Below, piece by piece: positions 11,943 to 29,108 of a stretch of DNA of 32,000 nucleotides (positions are counted from its first letter, which is position 1; the number at the start of each line of letters is the position of its first letter). The notes under the pieces were generated by a model. That model made no database searches, was not told where the DNA came from, and was given only the letters and a program-made list of their open reading frames with translations. The DNA is taken from contig JAFGBS010000004.1 of assembly GCA_016933055.1 (NCBI GenBank), positions 390,001-422,000 on the forward strand. Direction: 5' to 3'. The DNA is from Promethearchaeota archaeon (GTDB taxonomy: Archaea; Asgardarchaeota; Lokiarchaeia; Sigyniarchaeales; Promethearchaeaceae). The translations under genes and the position numbers were made by a program.

Positions 11943-12194
11943 ATGATGTCGCACCCCACTATTTCCATTGTTAACCGTAAGGGTATGGTTACTATCCCCT
12001 CCAATCTTCGAAAAAAGTATAATCTACAAGAGGGATCAGAAGTGGCCTTTCTAGATATCATGGGGAATTTAGTTCTTGTTCCAATTTTATCAATTGAGGA
12101 AATACGGAAGCAGATGCCGCCTGCAAAGGAGATGTTGAAATCCTACGAAGAATCCCGCAAACAGGAGATACAATTGGAAAATAAACGCCTGTGA
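11943..12194 (+). CDS. AbrB/MazE/SpoVT-family antitoxin (VapB-type)
   Basis: VNRKGMVTIPSNLRKKYNLQEGSEVAF swapped-hairpin motif. Its stop overlaps the next gene (GTGA). Confidence 0.9.
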   Translation: MMSHPTISIVNRKGMVTIPSNLRKKYNLQEGSEVAFLDIMGNLVLVPILSIEEIRKQMPPAKEMLKSYEESRKQEIQLENKRL

Positions 12195-12625
12195 AAGCCA
12201 TGAAAAAGAAGATTTGCATAGATACTGGGATAATGACCCAATATATTTCTTCAAGTCCTCCGGAACCGATTGTTAATATAATAAACCGAGTGATCAAGAG
12301 AGAAATTGAATGCTATATTCTTAAATCCGTGCTTATTGAGGTGTATTATCAAATATGTAAATGGAAAGGCATTGAATTTGCTCGTAATGCATTAACTTCT
12401 TTCCAAAAAACCGTACCTTTTGTCCCCGTAGAATTAGATGATGGGTTAATCCAAACTGCCGGGATACTAAAGTGTCAGCATCGAACTACATTATCCTATA
12501 TTGATTGTATGAGTATATCTTATTGTATAAATAACAAAATGGAATTTCACACTACCGAGAAAACCTTGAAAGGAATACAAGACGACACTTTGAACAAACT
12601 AAAAGTGAAAAAATATCGATTTTGA
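12191..12625 (+). CDS. PIN-domain (VapC-like) ribonuclease toxin
   Basis: ICIDTG (first Asp), VLIEVYYQI (Glu), LSYIDC (Asp), TTEK (Glu where T-x-D is usual). Translationally coupled to the AbrB gene; ATG at 12200 is an alternative start. Confidence 0.88.
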   Translation: MKAMKKKICIDTGIMTQYISSSPPEPIVNIINRVIKREIECYILKSVLIEVYYQICKWKGIEFARNALTSFQKTVPFVPVELDDGLIQTAGILKCQHRTTLSYIDCMSISYCINNKMEFHTTEKTLKGIQDDTLNKLKVKKYRF

Positions 12626-14420: not shown

Positions 14421-15710
14421 TTATAGATTTTCGCTACTGGCGGGTGGAGTTTTTTCACTCGGAGGTTGGGTTGTATGAATCTCATCAAATTTAAAGATAG
14501 GAGTCGATAAACCTAGGATTATGAAAGAAATTATGGAAAGTATTGGTGTCAAGATAAATTGGAACCAAATCCCCGTAAATTCTGCAAGTGCTCCCCAAAT
14601 AATTAAACCTAATGGCATAATTGATTTAATAAGGGTAAATAAACTGGAAAATATCCGACCTTGATATTCTCGCGGAATAACGATTTGTAAAATAGTGATC
14701 AATTGCGTGTCGATAAAAGTTATACACAATCCCAGAACAAACCCCACTACATAAATCGCCCAAAAATTCCAAGAAACCGTATTTGGAATTGCTGCGAGTG
14801 CTAAAAGCACGAATGAGTTTATAAATGCCCAGATAACCACCCCTTTCATTTTTGGCTGTTTTTTAATTAGCATCAAGATTAGTCCCCCGATAAAAAACCC
14901 TACTTGAACAGAAGCCATCAAAAAACCAAATTCTCGTTCAAGTCCACCGTGATAATTTTGTAATAATAAAGGTAAAAGGCTAAACAAGGGAACCACAAAG
15001 AAATTGGCTAATCCAAATAGGATAAAAGGTGGTATTAATTTTGTTTCATGCATATATCGGACAGAAATTTTGAAATCCTCAAGAAAATGAAGTTTTCCGG
15101 TGCCTTGTGTTGCTACCCTTGGAATTTTCACGATTAACAATACAATCAGAGTCGGTACACACGTAATTACATCAAACCAATAAATCTGGTTAATCGGCAT
15201 AATTTGTATGAGGAATGCTCCGGCTATTGGGGTAACAATTGAGAGAAGTGCCATAAAAACCCGATCGAAAGCATTTATTTTTTGAATAAACTTCTTGGGC
15301 ACCATTAAAGAGTTTAGACTAACTGCAACCGGCATCTGGAACCCTTGACATATTCCTCTAATTCCCATAAGAACTAAAATCTGCCAAATTTCGAAAATTC
15401 CGAAAAAGAAAAGCATTATCAGCACAAAAGTAGCAAATGCTTGAACCGCATCAGAAATGAAAAGAATTTTGTTCTTGGATCGCCGATCTGCAATCACCCC
15501 AGCAAAGGGGGATACAAGTATCATCGGCACCATATTCGATATGGTTGATAAAGATAGAATCAGAGAACTTCCTGTTTCGATTGTCAGAAACCATGTCACA
15601 CTAAAGGATACGAGTTGAGAACCAATTAAAGAAATGTACTGAGTAGCCCATAACCATAAAAATTGCTTAAAAGTCTTTCTTGGGATGGACACTTCATTTA
15701 AGTTTTCCAT
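14421..15710 (-). CDS. MFS transporter (DHA3/macrolide-efflux-like)
   Basis: WATQYISLIGSQL, motif A SPFAGVIADRRSKNKIL, VIPREYQGRIFS, 12 TM. The ORF track starts at TTG 15782; ATG 15710 (MENLNEV) is the more plausible start. Confidence 0.93.
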   Translation of the reverse strand: MENLNEVSIPRKTFKQFLWLWATQYISLIGSQLVSFSVTWFLTIETGSSLILSLSTISNMVPMILVSPFAGVIADRRSKNKILFISDAVQAFATFVLIMLFFFGIFEIWQILVLMGIRGICQGFQMPVAVSLNSLMVPKKFIQKINAFDRVFMALLSIVTPIAGAFLIQIMPINQIYWFDVITCVPTLIVLLIVKIPRVATQGTGKLHFLEDFKISVRYMHETKLIPPFILFGLANFFVVPLFSLLPLLLQNYHGGLEREFGFLMASVQVGFFIGGLILMLIKKQPKMKGVVIWAFINSFVLLALAAIPNTVSWNFWAIYVVGFVLGLCITFIDTQLITILQIVIPREYQGRIFSSLFTLIKSIMPLGLIIWGALAEFTGIWFQFILTPILSIISFIILGLSTPIFKFDEIHTTQPPSEKTPPASSENL

Positions 15711-15764
15711 ATGTATACCAAGAATTCCCGAATAAATATCCTTCGATATGTTATGCAGTGGAGA

Positions 15765-16070
15765 TGTTGCTAGCGAATGCAAAATCCAAAGTACAAAATG
15801 CTACCTTCTTTCAAGCTAAAGCAGAATTATTATCCTTCGATTCAGAGTACTTCGATTACCTTTATTGTTCTTTCGCGTTTCATCATTTTACCAATGATGC
15901 TTAGGTACTCCAGAAGATGTATCGGGTATTAATGCCACTCGGGGATTGCTAAAAAACATTACCACAAGTTCTGAATTTCTGGATGGCCGGTATATCAATC
16001 AATTCTTTCCCGAATCCAAAAAAATTGACATTGATAGATGTGGAAAGCTACTTAGATTTTATAATCATTA
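15765..16070 (+). pseudogene. class I SAM-dependent methyltransferase relic
   Basis: ATFFQAKAELLSFDSEYFDYLYCSFAFHHFTNDA*VLQKMYRVLMPLG, then a frameshift to LLKNITTSSEFLDGRYINQFFPESKKIDIDR. Matches the DAE.LPF.D..FD......FHH......L.EM.RVLKPGG pattern. TAG at 15902-15904; the SAM-binding N-terminus is missing. Confidence 0.75.
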
Positions 16071-16186: not shown

Positions 16187-17803
16187 ATGGATGCATTCCG
16201 GTATTCTTTATATATATCTGTAGGATTCGGGCTGTTGGTCTTTATTTGCTGCTTATTAAGTTCAAAAAAAAGGGCTGATTACGAGGATTATAGAAGGGAA
16301 AAATGGAACAAATATGTTTCTTTTCAAGACCCCGAGCTAAGAAAATCCTTGGAACACGATATCATTGTATCAACAGATGAAGAATTTGAGGCATTTTTGG
16401 TTTCTTTGCGTTCTTCGGTCAAGTATAGACGGGATAAAAACGGTTTACGCATTAGAAAAAACATATGCATGTTTATCAACAATATCTGGATGAATTCGTA
16501 TTCGGAAAAAGGTAGAAAAATTTACAAACGATTGAAAAAACTAGAAGAAATTGTCCCATTACTCAAACGAGTTTATTTTGGGCCTAAATACACCCCCATT
16601 ATTTATCGAGAACGAAAATATGAGAAATCCTATCAAAGGCGGAAGTTTAATTTCCCGCTCCAACCGGATTCCACGGCTCCAAAACTCGATACAATAATTG
16701 ATGTAGCATATCACCTTCAAACCTCAATTCGCTTGATTCTTGCCATTATTTATACTCAATCGCATTCACGCGATCGTAATTATGTTAAAATCACTCAAAT
16801 CGACAAGGCTTTGCATCAAAAGGGGAACTCTTACCTTAGGGTGGTTGGTTCTCCTATAGCTAGACATGTGGATATTGATCAATCATTCATCTTAAAGGAC
16901 AAGAGGGGAAAGGTCCCTAAAAACGCAAAAACAACCGATCCACAAGATGCTTATTTAGAATATAAAGAACTGGATAGTAATTTTTATACACGGAAAACGT
17001 TAGTAAAACCTAATGGCAGAAAACGATTAATAGCCGTTCCCAATGAGAAATTGCGATCCTTCCAGCGAATTATCCTCAAGACTATTCTTGAAAAGGCAGC
17101 CCTTCCTGATGTGTGTACGGGTTTTACAAAGACTCGTTCTACCGTGACCAATGCAGAATTTCATGTGGGTGCGCAAACTCTAGTAAAAGTTGATTTGCAT
17201 AATTTTTTCAATAACTTGTCTCTTGACCATGTATTTGAGGTATTCCGAGGATTTGGATATAATCGTCCTGTTTCGGGGATTTTGGCAAATTTATGCACGG
17301 ATTATTACAGAAGTCGTCGGTATTTACCTCAAGGAGCATCTACAAGTCCCATGATTGCGAATCTGTACGCATTGCATTTAGATAGACGTCTAGAAGGACT
17401 TGCGAACAAGTATGATTTGATCTACTCTCGATATGCAGATGATCTCACCTTTTCTTCTAAGGATCCCAAGATTCGTGTAAGAACCTTTATCCAAGCGGTA
17501 TACAAAATCATAAAAAGTGAAAAATTATACCCGAATTATCAAAAAACCAAAGTATATCGCAAGCAGCATAAAAAATCTGTTACGGGTATCACAGTAAATG
17601 AGAAAGTGAACATTGATCGAAAGTGGGTAAACGCATTTCGGGGTGAACTCTATCGCTATTCAAAATTCGGTGTGCCGGAAGAAGATAGGTTTAGAATCGT
17701 GCATCAAATGCACGGAAAATTTGCCTTTCTGAAAATGGTTAATCCTGAAGTTGCAAAGAAATATGAGACACAAATATCCAAATTCATTGCTGAAAATTCA
17801 TGA
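16187..17803 (+). CDS. retron-type reverse transcriptase with N-terminal transmembrane helix and long basic N-terminal extension
   Basis: KPNGRKRLIAVP, region X NAEFH (17150-17164), VKVDLHNFF, LPQGASTSPMIAN, YSRYADDLTFS (YADD at 17432), region Y VTGITVN (17579). No maturase or HNH domain. The ORF opens at GTG 16172; ATG 16187 follows an ATATATAT box at 16155-16162. Confidence 0.93.
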   Translation: MDAFRYSLYISVGFGLLVFICCLLSSKKRADYEDYRREKWNKYVSFQDPELRKSLEHDIIVSTDEEFEAFLVSLRSSVKYRRDKNGLRIRKNICMFINNIWMNSYSEKGRKIYKRLKKLEEIVPLLKRVYFGPKYTPIIYRERKYEKSYQRRKFNFPLQPDSTAPKLDTIIDVAYHLQTSIRLILAIIYTQSHSRDRNYVKITQIDKALHQKGNSYLRVVGSPIARHVDIDQSFILKDKRGKVPKNAKTTDPQDAYLEYKELDSNFYTRKTLVKPNGRKRLIAVPNEKLRSFQRIILKTILEKAALPDVCTGFTKTRSTVTNAEFHVGAQTLVKVDLHNFFNNLSLDHVFEVFRGFGYNRPVSGILANLCTDYYRSRRYLPQGASTSPMIANLYALHLDRRLEGLANKYDLIYSRYADDLTFSSKDPKIRVRTFIQAVYKIIKSEKLYPNYQKTKVYRKQHKKSVTGITVNEKVNIDRKWVNAFRGELYRYSKFGVPEEDRFRIVHQMHGKFAFLKMVNPEVAKKYETQISKFIAENS

Positions 17804-17822
17804 AACAAAAAAGAAAAAAGAA
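17804..17822 (-). terminator. double oligo-U terminator for the minus-strand ncRNA
   Basis: The minus strand reads TTCTTTTTTCTTTTTTGTT (two T6 runs) directly after the 3' inverted repeat. The plus strand after the RT stop is A-rich, so this tract can only act as an oligo-U terminator on a minus-strand transcript. Confidence 0.55.
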
Positions 17823-17957
17823 GTCCCTGCCAACAGATTTATGTTTTACCCTTGGTAAAATTCAACGAAAGACGCTTATTTCGTTGAATATTGTTGATAA
17901 TGTACATGTTCGTAGTCCACCACGATGGTTCATCGCAGCTCATTAGACGCCAGGGAC
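17823..17957 (-). ncRNA. candidate retron msr-msd ncRNA, convergent with the RT gene
   Basis: Minus strand: GTCCCTG-G-C...G-G-CAGGGAC, a 7-bp terminal inverted repeat closed by a G.G mismatch (putative branching G at 17950). The 5' half has small hairpins (UGCGAUG-AAC-CAUCGUG, whose G.U pairs form only on this strand). The 3' half has two perfect hairpins (17860-17889 with 11 bp; 17844-17860 with 7 bp). A U-tract follows immediately. Confidence 0.62.
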
Positions 17958-18513
17958 ATAATATTCATACTTTCTATACTTTTATGCATAATTATTATTC
18001 TATTATTAAATAATCCTCAAAAGAAGCGATTCTCTTCTTTCAATATCTTAAGCTTTAGGACTCCTGCGTCTTATAGGTTTTAACCAGTGAAATATGGATT
18101 TTAGTTTAACTGGAACATCCGACATCGAACCGCAACCTTAGAGGTCTTTATAATCAATTGCGCGATTTTGCAAATCGTCTTTCTTTAACGAAAATATCCC
18201 AAATAATTTGCGTGCACCAATTGTGTTCCCAGCAATATTCCTGTCTTCATAAATATTCAGAAAGTGATTTTTAAGCAGTTAAGGCATAAAATGAGAATAT
18301 CACAATACCAGGGAGAAACTGAATAAACTATGCCCAGAAATTTGCCATAGCTATTCCCAGATTTCCTGAATATATACCATTCGATATAAGGTTTATAAAT
18401 TATCTGGTTACCCGCAATCTATTCGACTATTTACCTATGCACAATATTTCAACCACGGAAGAAAAAGAAAATAGAGAGAATTGGGATGGACAGGTATACT
18501 TTCTTCCTCTCGA

Positions 18514-19815
18514 TTAGGTCTTAATCAGCTTCTTTCCCTTCAAGAGGTAAGGCGTGAATTTAATCAAAGAAGGACATACATACGAACACAATCCACAATC
18601 GATACAAACCTCGACGTGCAATTTTTTCAACAAAGTTACGTTTTCTTTTTTGGTTGCTTCCATGATCAATTGCGGATAAATATCAACCGGACACACGATA
18701 TTGCAATAATTGCACCGAATACATGGAATCTCATCTGCGTAGGGTTTTGATCGGTCTTTAGAAAACCCGGTAATGGCGGTCGTCCCTTTTTCTATCGGAA
18801 TATTTAAACTTTCGAGAGATGGTCCCATAAAAATGGAACCCATAATGGTTTTTTCAAATATCGTGGGAGATATGTTCAAAAAGTTGAAGATATGTTCAAT
18901 TGGCGTACCGATTCGTACCCATAAGTTTTCTCCACCTGTTTGTTCGGAATAAAAGGTAATTCCGCGTGATACTAACGGCAGTCCTTCATAAACCGCTTCA
19001 TAAACCGCGTAAACTGTTGCAATATTGTGCACTACTATACCAATCTCTGGAGGATAATGCCCTTGCGGAACTTCGTAACCCAATATCTCCTTGATGAGTA
19101 ATTTTTCGCTTCCAATAGAATAGTTGGGACGCATCCGAACTACTCGAATGCCATGTTCTTGCAATATTGCATCTAAATGAGGGGTCATTCCCTCTTTAGT
19201 CCGGGTAGCAACTATTATATCATGCACGTTTAAGATTTTGGCCATTACTTGGATACCCTTAAGTACTTCATCAGGTTTTTCCACCATTAATCGATAATCA
19301 GATGAGGTGTTAGGATCGCTTTCTTTGGCATTAATTATCAGATTAGTAATACGGTTAGGGGTTCCTAACTTAAGATGAGTGGGGTAGGTTGCCCCTCCTA
19401 ACCCTACGATGCCTGCTTTTTTCACACGATTAAGGAGATCTTCCTTGGATGCAGTCTCGGGATTCAATTTTTCGAATACTTGATTGGTTTTTGCATCTTC
19501 GGTTTGGATTTTTATGATTTGCTCTACCTTATTTGAAAACGGATTCTTTTGGGTGGTGATATCTATAACTTTCCCGTTTACGGGACTATGAACGGCTGCA
19601 TAAACTTTTTGATTTTCTTCTAAATCTCCGAGTATTTGACCAAATTTAACTGAATCGCCTATTTGAACTTGAGGTTGTGTTGGAACCCCCAAATGTTGTT
19701 TTAAATACACACTCATAATTTCTGCGGGGGGAACGATCTTGACGGGTTTTTCTGCAACGCTTTCTTTTATCCCCAGTGTAATCTCAAATCTTCCTTTTTC
19801 TTTGAAACTTTTCAT
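18514..19815 (-). CDS. rnfC: RnfC/RsxC-like electron transport subunit (divergent)
   Basis: LKQHLGVPTQPQVQIGDSV, VHSPVNGKV, AGIVGLGGATYPTHLK, two ferredoxin motifs CIRCNYCNIVCP and CIDCGLCSYVCPS. NAKESDP replaces the usual NGAECEP. Confidence 0.9.
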   Translation of the reverse strand: MKSFKEKGRFEITLGIKESVAEKPVKIVPPAEIMSVYLKQHLGVPTQPQVQIGDSVKFGQILGDLEENQKVYAAVHSPVNGKVIDITTQKNPFSNKVEQIIKIQTEDAKTNQVFEKLNPETASKEDLLNRVKKAGIVGLGGATYPTHLKLGTPNRITNLIINAKESDPNTSSDYRLMVEKPDEVLKGIQVMAKILNVHDIIVATRTKEGMTPHLDAILQEHGIRVVRMRPNYSIGSEKLLIKEILGYEVPQGHYPPEIGIVVHNIATVYAVYEAVYEGLPLVSRGITFYSEQTGGENLWVRIGTPIEHIFNFLNISPTIFEKTIMGSIFMGPSLESLNIPIEKGTTAITGFSKDRSKPYADEIPCIRCNYCNIVCPVDIYPQLIMEATKKENVTLLKKLHVEVCIDCGLCSYVCPSLIKFTPYLLKGKKLIKT

Positions 19816-20861
19816 CTTAGGCTCCTCCTTTGTTTCTTCGATTTGAACCCGTACGGTTTCCGAAATCCGATTTTGTCCAAGAAAGGTGTCGCTAAATTTA
19901 ATAATACGAGTGCGAAAATGGATCCTCCCAGCACATTCAAAAGTTGCAAGAAAAACGTGATCACTGCTAGGGCAACTCCAAAAATTATTTGAGATATTTC
20001 CGGGAGGGGCGTCGATTGAGGTTCTGTCGCCATAAAGAATACCATGAAGATAAAACTCCCCGTGAATACGTGAAAACTAATCCGTAACAGTATATCATCT
20101 CTTACAATTAACCCAAACACTACGGCTAAGCCGATCATGGTCAATAGTGCACTACCCACTATACGCCATTTATATCGTAACCACACAACAGCGATGGATC
20201 CTACAATTAATACTAAAATCCCGCAGGCACCTCCGATCCATCCATGAGTTTGCCAAAATAAAAGGCTGGCGGTAGCGGATAAGTCCCGACCAAAAATTGT
20301 TACTCGTTGAAAGATCCACATAGATGCTTCGAATCCTTCAGCGGTCCAAAGATTAAGATCTAAGTGATGCGGGTGAAATAGCTGTCCAATTGAAAGAGAT
20401 TCCTCCCAAAATAGCATGATTGACAATAACCCTAACAGTACTGTTTTCGCTCCCGCGGCAGGATTAATGTATTTTCGGATAAACAACCAGTTTTGTCCAA
20501 ATTTGAAAACAAGAACTGTGACCAAAGCTACTGCGGCGGTGATATAAAAGGGACCGGCAATAGGCATTGCTAACCCTACAATCATTCCTGCAACCAGTGT
20601 TGACGTGTAAGAATCATACGATACGGGTTTTTTTTTCCATTTTTGAAAGGATATTATTAAGGTGTGAATGACGAAAACCGTACCTAAGGCTGTAAGAATA
20701 TGAATTAACGCATTTATCCCCATGATTATACTGGAGCCGATCGCTATGATACTCAGCATGAGAAAGGTTTTTAGCATTAGTTCATCCTTGGAAAATCCCA
20801 TGTGAATATGGGGAGGTCGAATTCCTTCAAATTGCATGGGTGATCTCTCTTCTACGGTCAT
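19812..20861 (-). CDS. rnfD: RnfD/NqrB-family membrane subunit (divergent)
   Basis: PPHIH N-terminus, YINPAA, GWIGG, VFFMATEPQSTP, ALVLLNLATPFLDK, about 9-10 TM. ATGA overlap with rnfC. Confidence 0.88.
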   Translation of the reverse strand: MTVEERSPMQFEGIRPPHIHMGFSKDELMLKTFLMLSIIAIGSSIIMGINALIHILTALGTVFVIHTLIISFQKWKKKPVSYDSYTSTLVAGMIVGLAMPIAGPFYITAAVALVTVLVFKFGQNWLFIRKYINPAAGAKTVLLGLLSIMLFWEESLSIGQLFHPHHLDLNLWTAEGFEASMWIFQRVTIFGRDLSATASLLFWQTHGWIGGACGILVLIVGSIAVVWLRYKWRIVGSALLTMIGLAVVFGLIVRDDILLRISFHVFTGSFIFMVFFMATEPQSTPLPEISQIIFGVALAVITFFLQLLNVLGGSIFALVLLNLATPFLDKIGFRKPYGFKSKKQRRSLR

Positions 20862-26431: not shown

Positions 26432-27133
26432 TCATTTTCTAAAATGTAACGCGTAAAATAGTACAGATAGAACATCCATTAAGTTATATATGCCGATTGG
26501 TTCAATCTGTTTGTCTTTACCCTTGGAATCACCTTTAAATTTAGCATAATATTCAGAATATTTCCCTTTCTCCGTTAACTCACGCAGTATAAAACCTGCT
26601 GTACTCATGAATTGCTCTAAACGCCTTACTGAATAAAAATCATCTTGAATATCTATAATAGTAGAGGGTATGTTGTAGGGAATATTGAAATCGCTTGAAA
26701 TTTTTTTTATGATCGGGATATCAAAAGACTGGTTAAAGACAATAACTACATCACAATCAGCTATGTATTGGGAGCTTAAGTTTAAGAGTTCAGGTGCTAG
26801 ATCTCTTTTTCGTAACATATTAAACGCTTGAAACACGGTTAATTTTTTATAATCCTGAGATTGGGGTCGTAAATCCAACACAGCTAATCCCATGATATTC
26901 ATGTATCCTTCTTTTGCTCTAGAAATGATGTCGGTAGTTTCAATATCTAAACATACAATTTTTTTATTGCAGAATTCATTTCCAAGTTTCAAATTTTCAG
27001 AAACGCACTCATGGATATAGCAAATCACCCGTAAGATTTCACTGGTCCATTCGGTATTCCAGGCTGATTTAGGAGGGTATTCATAATAGGACGAAACAGC
27101 GTTATGTTCAAATTTTAATGAAGAAGTTGACAA
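26432..27133 (-). CDS. RNase H-like DEDDy 3'-5' exonuclease (RNase_H_2/YprB-like), 5' part disrupted
   Basis: Exo I IVCLDIETT, Exo II VFNQSFDIPII, Exo III IYNLMDV. The frame stays open 31 codons upstream of the TTG with no start codon. Confidence 0.8.
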   Translation of the reverse strand: MSTSSLKFEHNAVSSYYEYPPKSAWNTEWTSEILRVICYIHECVSENLKLGNEFCNKKIVCLDIETTDIISRAKEGYMNIMGLAVLDLRPQSQDYKKLTVFQAFNMLRKRDLAPELLNLSSQYIADCDVVIVFNQSFDIPIIKKISSDFNIPYNIPSTIIDIQDDFYSVRRLEQFMSTAGFILRELTEKGKYSEYYAKFKGDSKGKDKQIEPIGIYNLMDVLSVLFYALHFRK

Positions 27134-27464: not shown

Positions 27465-29108
27465 TCAAACAGTCTTTTTATCGTGCTTATGTTCTCTCTT
27501 TTTTCTTCGACCGACTGAACTGATAAGAATCGAAATTGACAATAACGCAGTGCACCCGATGATTACATACCAAAATGGTGGAAGTCCCGTAGTATCATCT
27601 TCTGAAGTTCTATGGAACAAATCCTCCATTGCTTGAACAAATGCAAGTTTAAAATACGGGGGTATGGAACTTGCTGCATCAGTTTTACAAAATGATTGAC
27701 CTGCGGGTTTGATATTCACTCCTGAGTATGCGAGTGAGGATTGTACATAATTCACAATCGGATTCGATATATATTTGTGGCTAGAGGCTAGAGATACGCT
27801 GTACAGAGTAGAACTGATTCGAGGATAACTATGCCAGTGATTGGCTTCAGCAATGGTATGAGTATGCATTGGTACTTTATAGTAACGGTGCACATGCTCT
27901 TCATTTCCTCCTATCGTGCCTATTAATGAATCATTAGCGGTAGCGAGAACGAATCTATTAAAGATTGATGTATTCGATGTACCTTTGTATTGGGAAGTAA
28001 ATTCCGGTATTTCATGCACACCATCAGCCCACCAGAAAATTGAATTATTAGGTAAATAGGAAGTTGACTCATTTGTCGTAATAAATGACATCCGGAAGTA
28101 GGGAGGATTAGTTTCAGTATCATAGGTCACACAATTCAAATCTCCCGATTCCATTATAGTTATACCACTAGTTGTTGGATTTGTATAATCTATCTGGGTC
28201 AAAATACCGAGTGTTGATACGTCTGAACCCGGTACAATATCCTCACTAATTCGTGAGACGCCCAACTCATGATGATGGGGATCTACATCTACCTCATGAT
28301 CATGCAAAGGTAAATCGGAATAAGAATGGTTATGTAAGGCATTTCCTCCCAATAATTGGATTTGATCCTGCTTATTGGTGGAATAAATGAACCTATTCGT
28401 AAGATTTGAAGAAAATAATGAACCATTGCATAAAATCCATCCATTAGGAATTGTATCATACGATTCAACCCAGCCAAGAATTGAATGTGCTGGCAAAACT
28501 GCCTCTCCATCATCTGGCGCAATTTTCATAATGTAGGCTAATCTTATATACATGGGTAATGAACTGGATTCATCGGAAACACAATCTTCGACTCCTGCTG
28601 GATATAGATAGAAATCAATTTTGGAAGAGGAGGTTTCCGTCGCCATCGAGTAATCATAGGAGCGATCAATACCAGTTACCACATTAGATTCTGCTCTGGG
28701 TCCCGCAGTTCCATCTTTTTCGTACAGCCAATGTCTATGTCCTGGATCGTTTTTCACGTGGTTGTGATACGGTAATTCGTCATACGGATGAGAATGATTT
28801 ATGGATCCACCCGTTTCTCCGGGATTTTCAAATTCCCCTACGCTCATAATAAATTTGTCTGTTAAGTTGGGTGTACCATTTGCACCATCACAGAGTGCCC
28901 ACCCTTCGGGGATTGAACTGAGATTTCCATTCCATAGCACAATTATTCCGGTCAAATCAGAAGGTAAAAAATTTCCATTGGAATTGGAAATAGAAAGCGT
29001 TTCTAACTTAAAATTATTGGAATCGGAAACATAATGACCCAGAACAGGAAGGAAACATAGTAAAAGGATAAGTGCCGTAAATTTTACGGAGCATTTTATT
29101 TTTTTCAT
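27465..29108 (-). CDS. secreted, C-terminally TM-anchored protein with three tandem phage tail-collar/tail-fibre-like units
   Basis: Signal peptide. Unit 1 GIIVLWNG...IPEGWALCDGANGTPNLTDKF...GETGG...PMYIRLAYIMK is a classic tail-collar pattern, repeated in diverged form twice. C-terminal TM + RRKKR. Confidence 0.85.
   Translation of the reverse strand: MKKIKCSVKFTALILLLCFLPVLGHYVSDSNNFKLETLSISNSNGNFLPSDLTGIIVLWNGNLSSIPEGWALCDGANGTPNLTDKFIMSVGEFENPGETGGSINHSHPYDELPYHNHVKNDPGHRHWLYEKDGTAGPRAESNVVTGIDRSYDYSMATETSSSKIDFYLYPAGVEDCVSDESSSLPMYIRLAYIMKIAPDDGEAVLPAHSILGWVESYDTIPNGWILCNGSLFSSNLTNRFIYSTNKQDQIQLLGGNALHNHSYSDLPLHDHEVDVDPHHHELGVSRISEDIVPGSDVSTLGILTQIDYTNPTTSGITIMESGDLNCVTYDTETNPPYFRMSFITTNESTSYLPNNSIFWWADGVHEIPEFTSQYKGTSNTSIFNRFVLATANDSLIGTIGGNEEHVHRYYKVPMHTHTIAEANHWHSYPRISSTLYSVSLASSHKYISNPIVNYVQSSLAYSGVNIKPAGQSFCKTDAASSIPPYFKLAFVQAMEDLFHRTSEDDTTGLPPFWYVIIGCTALLSISILISSVGRRKKREHKHDKKTV

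Follow-up and report, generated by a model that had tools for sequence, protein, structure and literature searches.

Retrons account for about 4% of archaeal reverse transcriptases (RTs) (PMC8632793), and several described types resemble the Asgard locus considered here. The closest is type XIII (clade 10: Mx162, Mx65, Sa163, Ne144; PMC7736814), to which it is linked by its best PADLOC model, an RT core that seems to group among type XIII-like RTs, the final ~60 residues of an N-terminal extension and a vertical-looking inheritance. However, the Asgard retron has a membrane helix and a private domain in place of the rest of that extension, it lacks the SWIM, WGR or HEAT/ARM partner and its host is an archaeon, while its RNA lies on the opposite strand with a promoter-like site of its own and is often duplicated or unlinked. 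Type IV retrons (Eco6/Ec48) are also membrane-linked, but their membrane protein is a separate 2-TM gene accompanying a clade 3 RT, whereas the Asgard protein carries one helix within the RT. Single-gene retrons (I-C with Toprim, VII-A1 with DUF3800, XI with a protease and XII with TIR) likewise consist of one protein with an extra RT domain plus an ncRNA; these fusions are C-terminal known enzymes, while the Asgard one is N-terminal, predicted to be membrane-bound and has no fold assigned. Stand-alone retrons (the Ec107-like clade 2 branch and clade 11) also combine msr-msd and RT with no effector gene, but they belong to a different RT clade and no membrane anchor is reported for them in the literature searched. 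Finally, the msDNA-like repeats of Nannocystis exedens (Lampson and Rice 1997; Lampson et al. 2002; as cited in PMC6868368) are partial msDNA copies located away from the RT; they have been interpreted as retrotransposed DNA, which makes them a precedent for msDNA capture. The Asgard copies differ in that they are archaeal, occur in six genomes, can be compared with empty sites, show ends at the predicted 5' base of the msDNA and include one within a tRNA intron.

The locus was studied in a 32,000-nucleotide stretch of a Promethearchaeota contig (the window). The Asgard system works like a retron: its RT and its RNA carry the expected features, but the single-transcript layout and the type XIII partners are absent. 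New here are the limits of the RT's domains, the msDNA copies captured elsewhere and a tRNA intron derived from the msd.

The anchored reverse transcriptase and its N-terminal region

The RT gene (16187-17803, + strand) encodes 538 aa, appears closest to type XIII (clade 10) RTs and is the only RT gene in the genome. Its product matches Pfam RVT_1 over residues 274-470, its best PADLOC model is RT_XIII (E 1e-84) and its nearest solved structure is the Ec86 RT. The core (16973-17800, +), recognised by invariant alignment columns, evolves at a dN/dS of 0.08-0.10 and contains all three motifs that define a retron RT in intact form: region X (NAxxH, here NAEFH, residues 322-326, 17150-17164), YADD (residues 416-419, 17432-17443) and region Y (VTG, residues 465-467, 17579-17587), all on the + strand. 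Together with the conserved helix, the positive residues after it and the real msr-msd RNA, all described below, these motifs support a membrane-tethered retron RT with its catalytic part in the cytoplasm, as proposed in the sequence-only reading of this DNA.

Twenty-one close homologues were found, mostly near full length, and the named ones come from Promethearchaeota or Lokiarchaeota; QEE17281.1 of the cultured Promethearchaeum syntrophicum MK-D1 is a member of the same anchored family. In a quick tree with weak deep forks, built without a reference set of all retron clades, this family came out as a single clade with an SH-aLRT of 100, placed amid type XIII-like RTs. Across 400 surveyed genomes of the phylum, the full architecture was confined to the host's own family (nine of its 14 genomes), and synteny of the locus holds inside the genera of that family; the retron was missing from the other five genomes, two of which are single-contig. 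Retron RTs lacking the anchor also occur in other Asgard genomes (L097-L117), many with an ordinary type XIII extension; in some of them the N-terminal fusion is very long, giving open frames of 755-1098 aa.

A single N-terminal hydrophobic helix at residues 6-26 (16202-16264, +), followed by KKR, has a best 19-residue Kyte-Doolittle (KD) mean of 2.24, and no other such segment is present in the RT. Such a helix had been read as a signal-anchor holding the RT in the cytoplasm, and the comparison with relatives supports that prediction: in 26 of the 29 family proteins a membrane helix (KD 2.0-3.6) lies within the first 40 residues and is followed by basic residues, usually with a Cys close to its C-terminal end, while none of 99 other retron-RT hits has one or even reaches KD 1.6. 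Two of the three exceptions have the helix upstream, in frame ahead of a miscalled start (P0019) or ahead of a frameshift (P0021); the third (P0012) is on a 1.5-kb contig. Homologues begin 3-17 residues ahead of the helix, so the true start does not lie downstream of it. The positive-inside rule suggests an N-out, C-in topology, and membrane anchoring of the RT can be predicted from its sequence with high confidence; no report of a membrane-anchored retron RT was found in the literature searched. Hydrophobicity of the helix is conserved but its sequence poorly so (aa identity 0.32-0.55), which suits a generic signal-anchor.

Residues 28-128 (16268-16570, +) form a helical domain specific to the family, without a known family or fold. 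The very basic stretch that had been noted after the helix is borne out for this domain (25 K/R versus 16 D/E). A profile search of 1.84 billion representatives returned 12 matches, namely family members or their fragments and one weak partial match. No match was found between residues 28-128 and the type XIII (Mx162-like) extension or between residues 1-263 and NCBIfam, no stand-alone version was present among proteins of 90-289 aa, and no catalytic signature was seen in the domain. A Pfam NEPRO_N match (E 0.054) was weak and was rejected as noise. Foldseek, VIA and atlas searches with a model of residues 28-165 gave generic helical or HEAT-like rows only, with a highest Z of 7.7 for a generic helical match in VIA and TM scores that were marginal or under 0.5; they neither assign a fold nor point to a new one. 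The domain is under purifying selection (dN/dS 0.29 versus 0.10 for the core), and its conserved residues are basic, aromatic, Pro or Gly (K94, N103, R115, P124, R128, G132 and Y140).

The following segment, residues 129-199 (YFGP...P.l.tIiDvA; 16571-16783, +), is by hhalign an ordinary type XIII-like pre-RT segment. While the first ~130 residues of the RT do not match the Mx162-like extension, residues 129-197 align with its last ~60 residues (hhalign 85%, E 6.4e-6). The ~260 aa of sequence that had seemed unexplained thus shrink to ~128 (the anchor and the 28-128 domain): an extra domain stands for residues 28-128, but not for 129-197. Residues 200-262 (16784-16972, +) make up a variable, probably disordered loop before the fingers hairpin, as judged from pLDDT and the alignment; it is nearly missing in several homologues, pLDDT is below 50 over residues 213-261, and the distance between the flanking motifs varies from 40 to 126 aa across the family (99 in the window's RT). 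The ~65-aa insert described in the sequence-only reading exists, but as a variable loop and not as a domain. The HSRDRNY ahead of it is not conserved as a motif: near-invariance is limited to Q191 and Y199. Two family members (P0016 and P0129) have a second, long insertion within the fingers hairpin.

The msr-msd RNA and the surroundings of the locus

Flank comparison revealed a conserved element 3' of the RT gene, and no conserved element upstream. Its fold and covariation identify it as an msr-msd non-coding RNA (17823-17957, - strand) convergent with the RT. Read along the minus strand, it consists of the a2 arm (17951-17957), the predicted branch G (17950), the conserved msr hairpin (17920-17938), the msd hairpins, the facing G (17830) and the a1 arm (17823-17829), directly followed by a T-rich tract (17806-17822, -), which is a likely terminator given archaeal oligo-T termination. 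As in the Ec86 layout, we take reverse transcription to start at the base adjoining the facing G; the predicted msDNA is then 71 nt long, with two hairpins (17831-17901, +). The features expected of a retron RNA are all present: paired a1 and a2 arms, an unpaired invariant G after a2 facing a G, and msr and msd hairpins. The fold has a z-score of -4.3, and in an alignment of 14 copies 99% of cells are paired and six pairs show two-sided changes; the covariation score was reached by none of 500 shuffles and by no slid register, a control that is inflated by related sequences. Rfam gave no match, and searches with the ncRNA model around 30 further RT loci, type XIII-like or Asgard, produced nothing confident.

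A linked ncRNA was found in 17 of 18 loci, 15 times downstream (one a partial hit) and twice upstream of the RT; it is on the opposite strand in every one of them, so the usual layout of msr-msd and ret on one strand and one transcript does not apply. The eighteenth genome (G143) has two unlinked ncRNA copies. These are complete msr-msd RNAs on contigs other than that of the RT (L131:1503-1706 and L135:111-320), with near-identical promoters and msr and different msd. In four loci, including that of MK-D1, the ncRNA is duplicated with different msd hairpins. A TATA-like box lies ~27-34 nt upstream of the ncRNA in 19 of 22 copies (shuffle mean 7.0; 0/2000 shuffles reach 19); the window's own copy has no match by the pattern used, and a sigma-70 promoter scan stayed at chance level. 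The box, together with the opposite-strand and unlinked copies, suggests that the ncRNA is probably its own transcription unit. An MK-D1-like RNA run, available as contigs and so uninformative on strand and level, covered the RT gene in part and did not cover the ncRNA; it was given no weight.

None of the neighbouring genes is conserved family-wide across the 18 loci, and the ten neighbouring proteins tested gave no PADLOC defence match. Linked SWIM/wHTH and WGR or HEAT/ARM genes, the type XIII partners, are not a feature of the family; in one locus a 72-aa WGR gene occurs at a distance of 600 nt, and the host genome (91% complete) has no WGR match. The surroundings are of a housekeeping kind and the loci are not in defence islands.

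Several other features of the window were observed. RnfC-like and RnfD-like genes adjoin the retron (18514-20861, -). On its other side, a broken frame at 15700-15950 (+) with an internal stop resembles, judged by eye, the remnant of a class I methyltransferase (FDYLYCSFAFHHF); it overlaps the start of an MFS gene, and a 42-aa piece of it has no Pfam match. A 50-nt direct repeat (78% identical; 15700-15749 and 18338-18387) flanks the retron, possibly as a decayed insertion boundary or by chance. Farther away are an 83-aa ORF overlapping a PIN-domain gene (11943-12625, +), likely a VapBC-type toxin-antitoxin pair, and two minus-strand genes, one of the RNase_H_2 family (26432-27133) and one whose 547-aa product includes a phage tail collar domain (27465-29108).

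The absence of a partner gene bears on whether the effector could be part of the RT itself. According to this explanation, the locus would be a one-protein abortive-infection retron in which the RT-msDNA complex keeps a fused membrane effector (the helix and residues 28-128) inactive until a virus disturbs the msDNA and frees it. Most retrons are tripartite, whereas none of these 18 loci has a partner gene and nothing else in the window's locus could serve as effector; fused effectors are known from types I-C, VII-A1, XI and XII, and Eco6/Ec48 uses a 2-TM effector (PMC7736814, PMC8632793). The purifying selection on the 28-128 domain fits as well, and duplicated RNAs with different msd hairpins would widen the range of sensing. 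However, there is one helix only, of variable sequence, the domain matches no effector family or fold, the known fusions are C-terminal and the loci lie outside defence islands; we regard a fused effector as possible but less likely than not, a close second to the tether-plus-adaptor reading given below.

Copies of the msd away from the retron

The predicted msDNA of the window has an identical copy elsewhere in the host genome (C28:9332-9402, corresponding to L123:3333-3403), which matches 17831-17901 at 71 of 71 positions, starting from the predicted first RT base. It replaces ~42 nt (~14 codons) of an ICMT/PEMT-family gene whose orthologue in a genome of the same genus (G131) is intact and without the msd copy; the host's gene is decayed, with other frameshifts besides the copy. 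The two junctions together form a 14-bp inverted repeat. A JGI scan for the C28 flank gave no match, and a genome-wide msd search of the host found nothing besides C28.

In total, msd-only copies were found in six genomes (G000, G139, MK-D1, G140, G141 and G143). The G139 copy (L159:1467-1550; 82 nt, ~80% identical) lies just upstream of an aIF-1A-like gene, at a site that is empty in three congeners, and the closed MK-D1 genome contains a 62-nt copy (85% identical). At least four copies are present in G143 (L225-L228), and several of the further copies in G139 and G143 are at gene ends or between genes. The msr hairpin is never included. The end of four copies falls precisely on the predicted first RT base, and four begin at RNA positions 56-59. 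With the MK-D1 msd as query, matches were obtained solely in the four genomes of the genus that has this RNA type and in none of 147 others; in five other family genomes an msd query gave nothing below E 0.08. G131 and G138 gave short AT-rich msd matches of 20-25 nt, which we do not regard as captures.

Copies restricted to the msd and ending at the predicted base point to an active RT whose msDNA was captured into the chromosome, and the locus is very probably a true retron that makes msDNA, as far as genome sequences can tell. Alternatively, the dispersed copies could stem from duplication at the DNA level or from chimeric assembly, and the N-terminus could be neutral baggage carried by an otherwise ordinary type XIII RT. 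The C28 copy is indeed 100% identical and known from the assembly alone, and hairpin DNA is recombinogenic, but this explanation is hard to reconcile with copies that never include the msr hairpin, four of which share the same predicted end, with diverged copies (80-90%), one of them in the closed MK-D1 genome, and with an N-terminus conserved family-wide at a dN/dS of 0.29. We consider it very improbable.

One copy is found in a tRNA gene. The tRNA-Phe(GAA) of G140 and G141 contains a 54-nt insertion near position 32/33 (L153; L154:1470-1597). MK-D1, G139 and four further genomes of the family lack this insertion. Its first 45 nt match the G140 msd at 37 positions, a score that none of 2000 shuffles attained. 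The insertion is lineage-specific and has, by eye, the bulge-helix-bulge-like boundaries of a putative archaeal BHB intron (a 4-bp helix with 3-nt bulges). Of the first msd hairpin it includes no more than the loop and 3' arm, while the second hairpin is complete, internal mismatch included, which makes transfer from msd to intron the simpler direction. This is one case and not a general mechanism; ARAGORN reported eight introns in the host genome, none with an msd match. Across family members (L178-L188), tRNA-Phe(GAA) introns are located in the D-arm, at 32/33, in the anticodon loop or in the T-loop, and the gene has no intron in MK-D1, G135 and G138.

Chromosomal capture might also be part of the retron's function. 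In that case the retron would be domesticated for a non-defence role, its msDNA acting as a decoy for DNA-binding proteins or as patch DNA at membrane-associated breaks or forks. Domestication has been suggested for vertically inherited retrons by Mestre et al. (PMC7736814), and the restriction to one family, the presence in nine of 14 genomes, the synteny inside genera and the several captured copies in G143 agree with it. On the other hand, the retron is missing from the remaining five family genomes, including the two single-contig ones, the host genome has just one captured copy, and capture can disrupt genes, as a by-product would. Domestication seems unlikely and ranks third among the readings.

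Proposed role and significance

Our preferred, still tentative, reading is that of an active effector-less retron of one Asgard family, with an RT of type XIII-like origin, a generic tether plus adaptor and an unlinked output. The RT would be held in the membrane by its signal-anchor, all residues beyond 27 being cytoplasmic; it would prime on the branch G and copy the msd into a hairpin msDNA of ~70-150 nt. The helix would serve as a generic tether, and the basic 28-128 domain as an adaptor for the RNA/msDNA or for an unlinked host partner. Compared with a fused toxin, a tether with an adaptor domain may have a slight edge, since there is just one helix, of variable sequence, and conservation falls on basic or structural residues; for residues 28-128 themselves an adaptor is marginally the more probable role. 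The RT-msDNA complex may then act as a membrane-proximal sensor, most likely antiviral, whose output protein is encoded elsewhere; that the output runs through a partner in trans is a guess, and the housekeeping surroundings and the synteny within genera, which do not point to defence, count against an antiviral sensor. As a by-product, breaks in the chromosome would occasionally take up msDNA, which would account for the msd-only copies in genes, in intergenic DNA and in a tRNA intron.

The captured msd copies are genomic evidence for an active archaeal retron and predict both ends of its msDNA, the 5' end beside the facing G and the 3' end close to ncRNA position 57, and the presence of the system in the cultured MK-D1 (QEE17281.1) makes it experimentally accessible. 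The full proposal, a membrane-bound archaeal retron whose msDNA was repeatedly written into the host chromosome and supplied the sequence of at least one new tRNA intron, stands at roughly even chances. If it is true, the N-terminal module would represent a new class of membrane effector or tether, and retron msDNA would be both a traceable donor for intron gain in Asgard tRNA genes and a natural editor of genomes in the archaea closest to eukaryotes.
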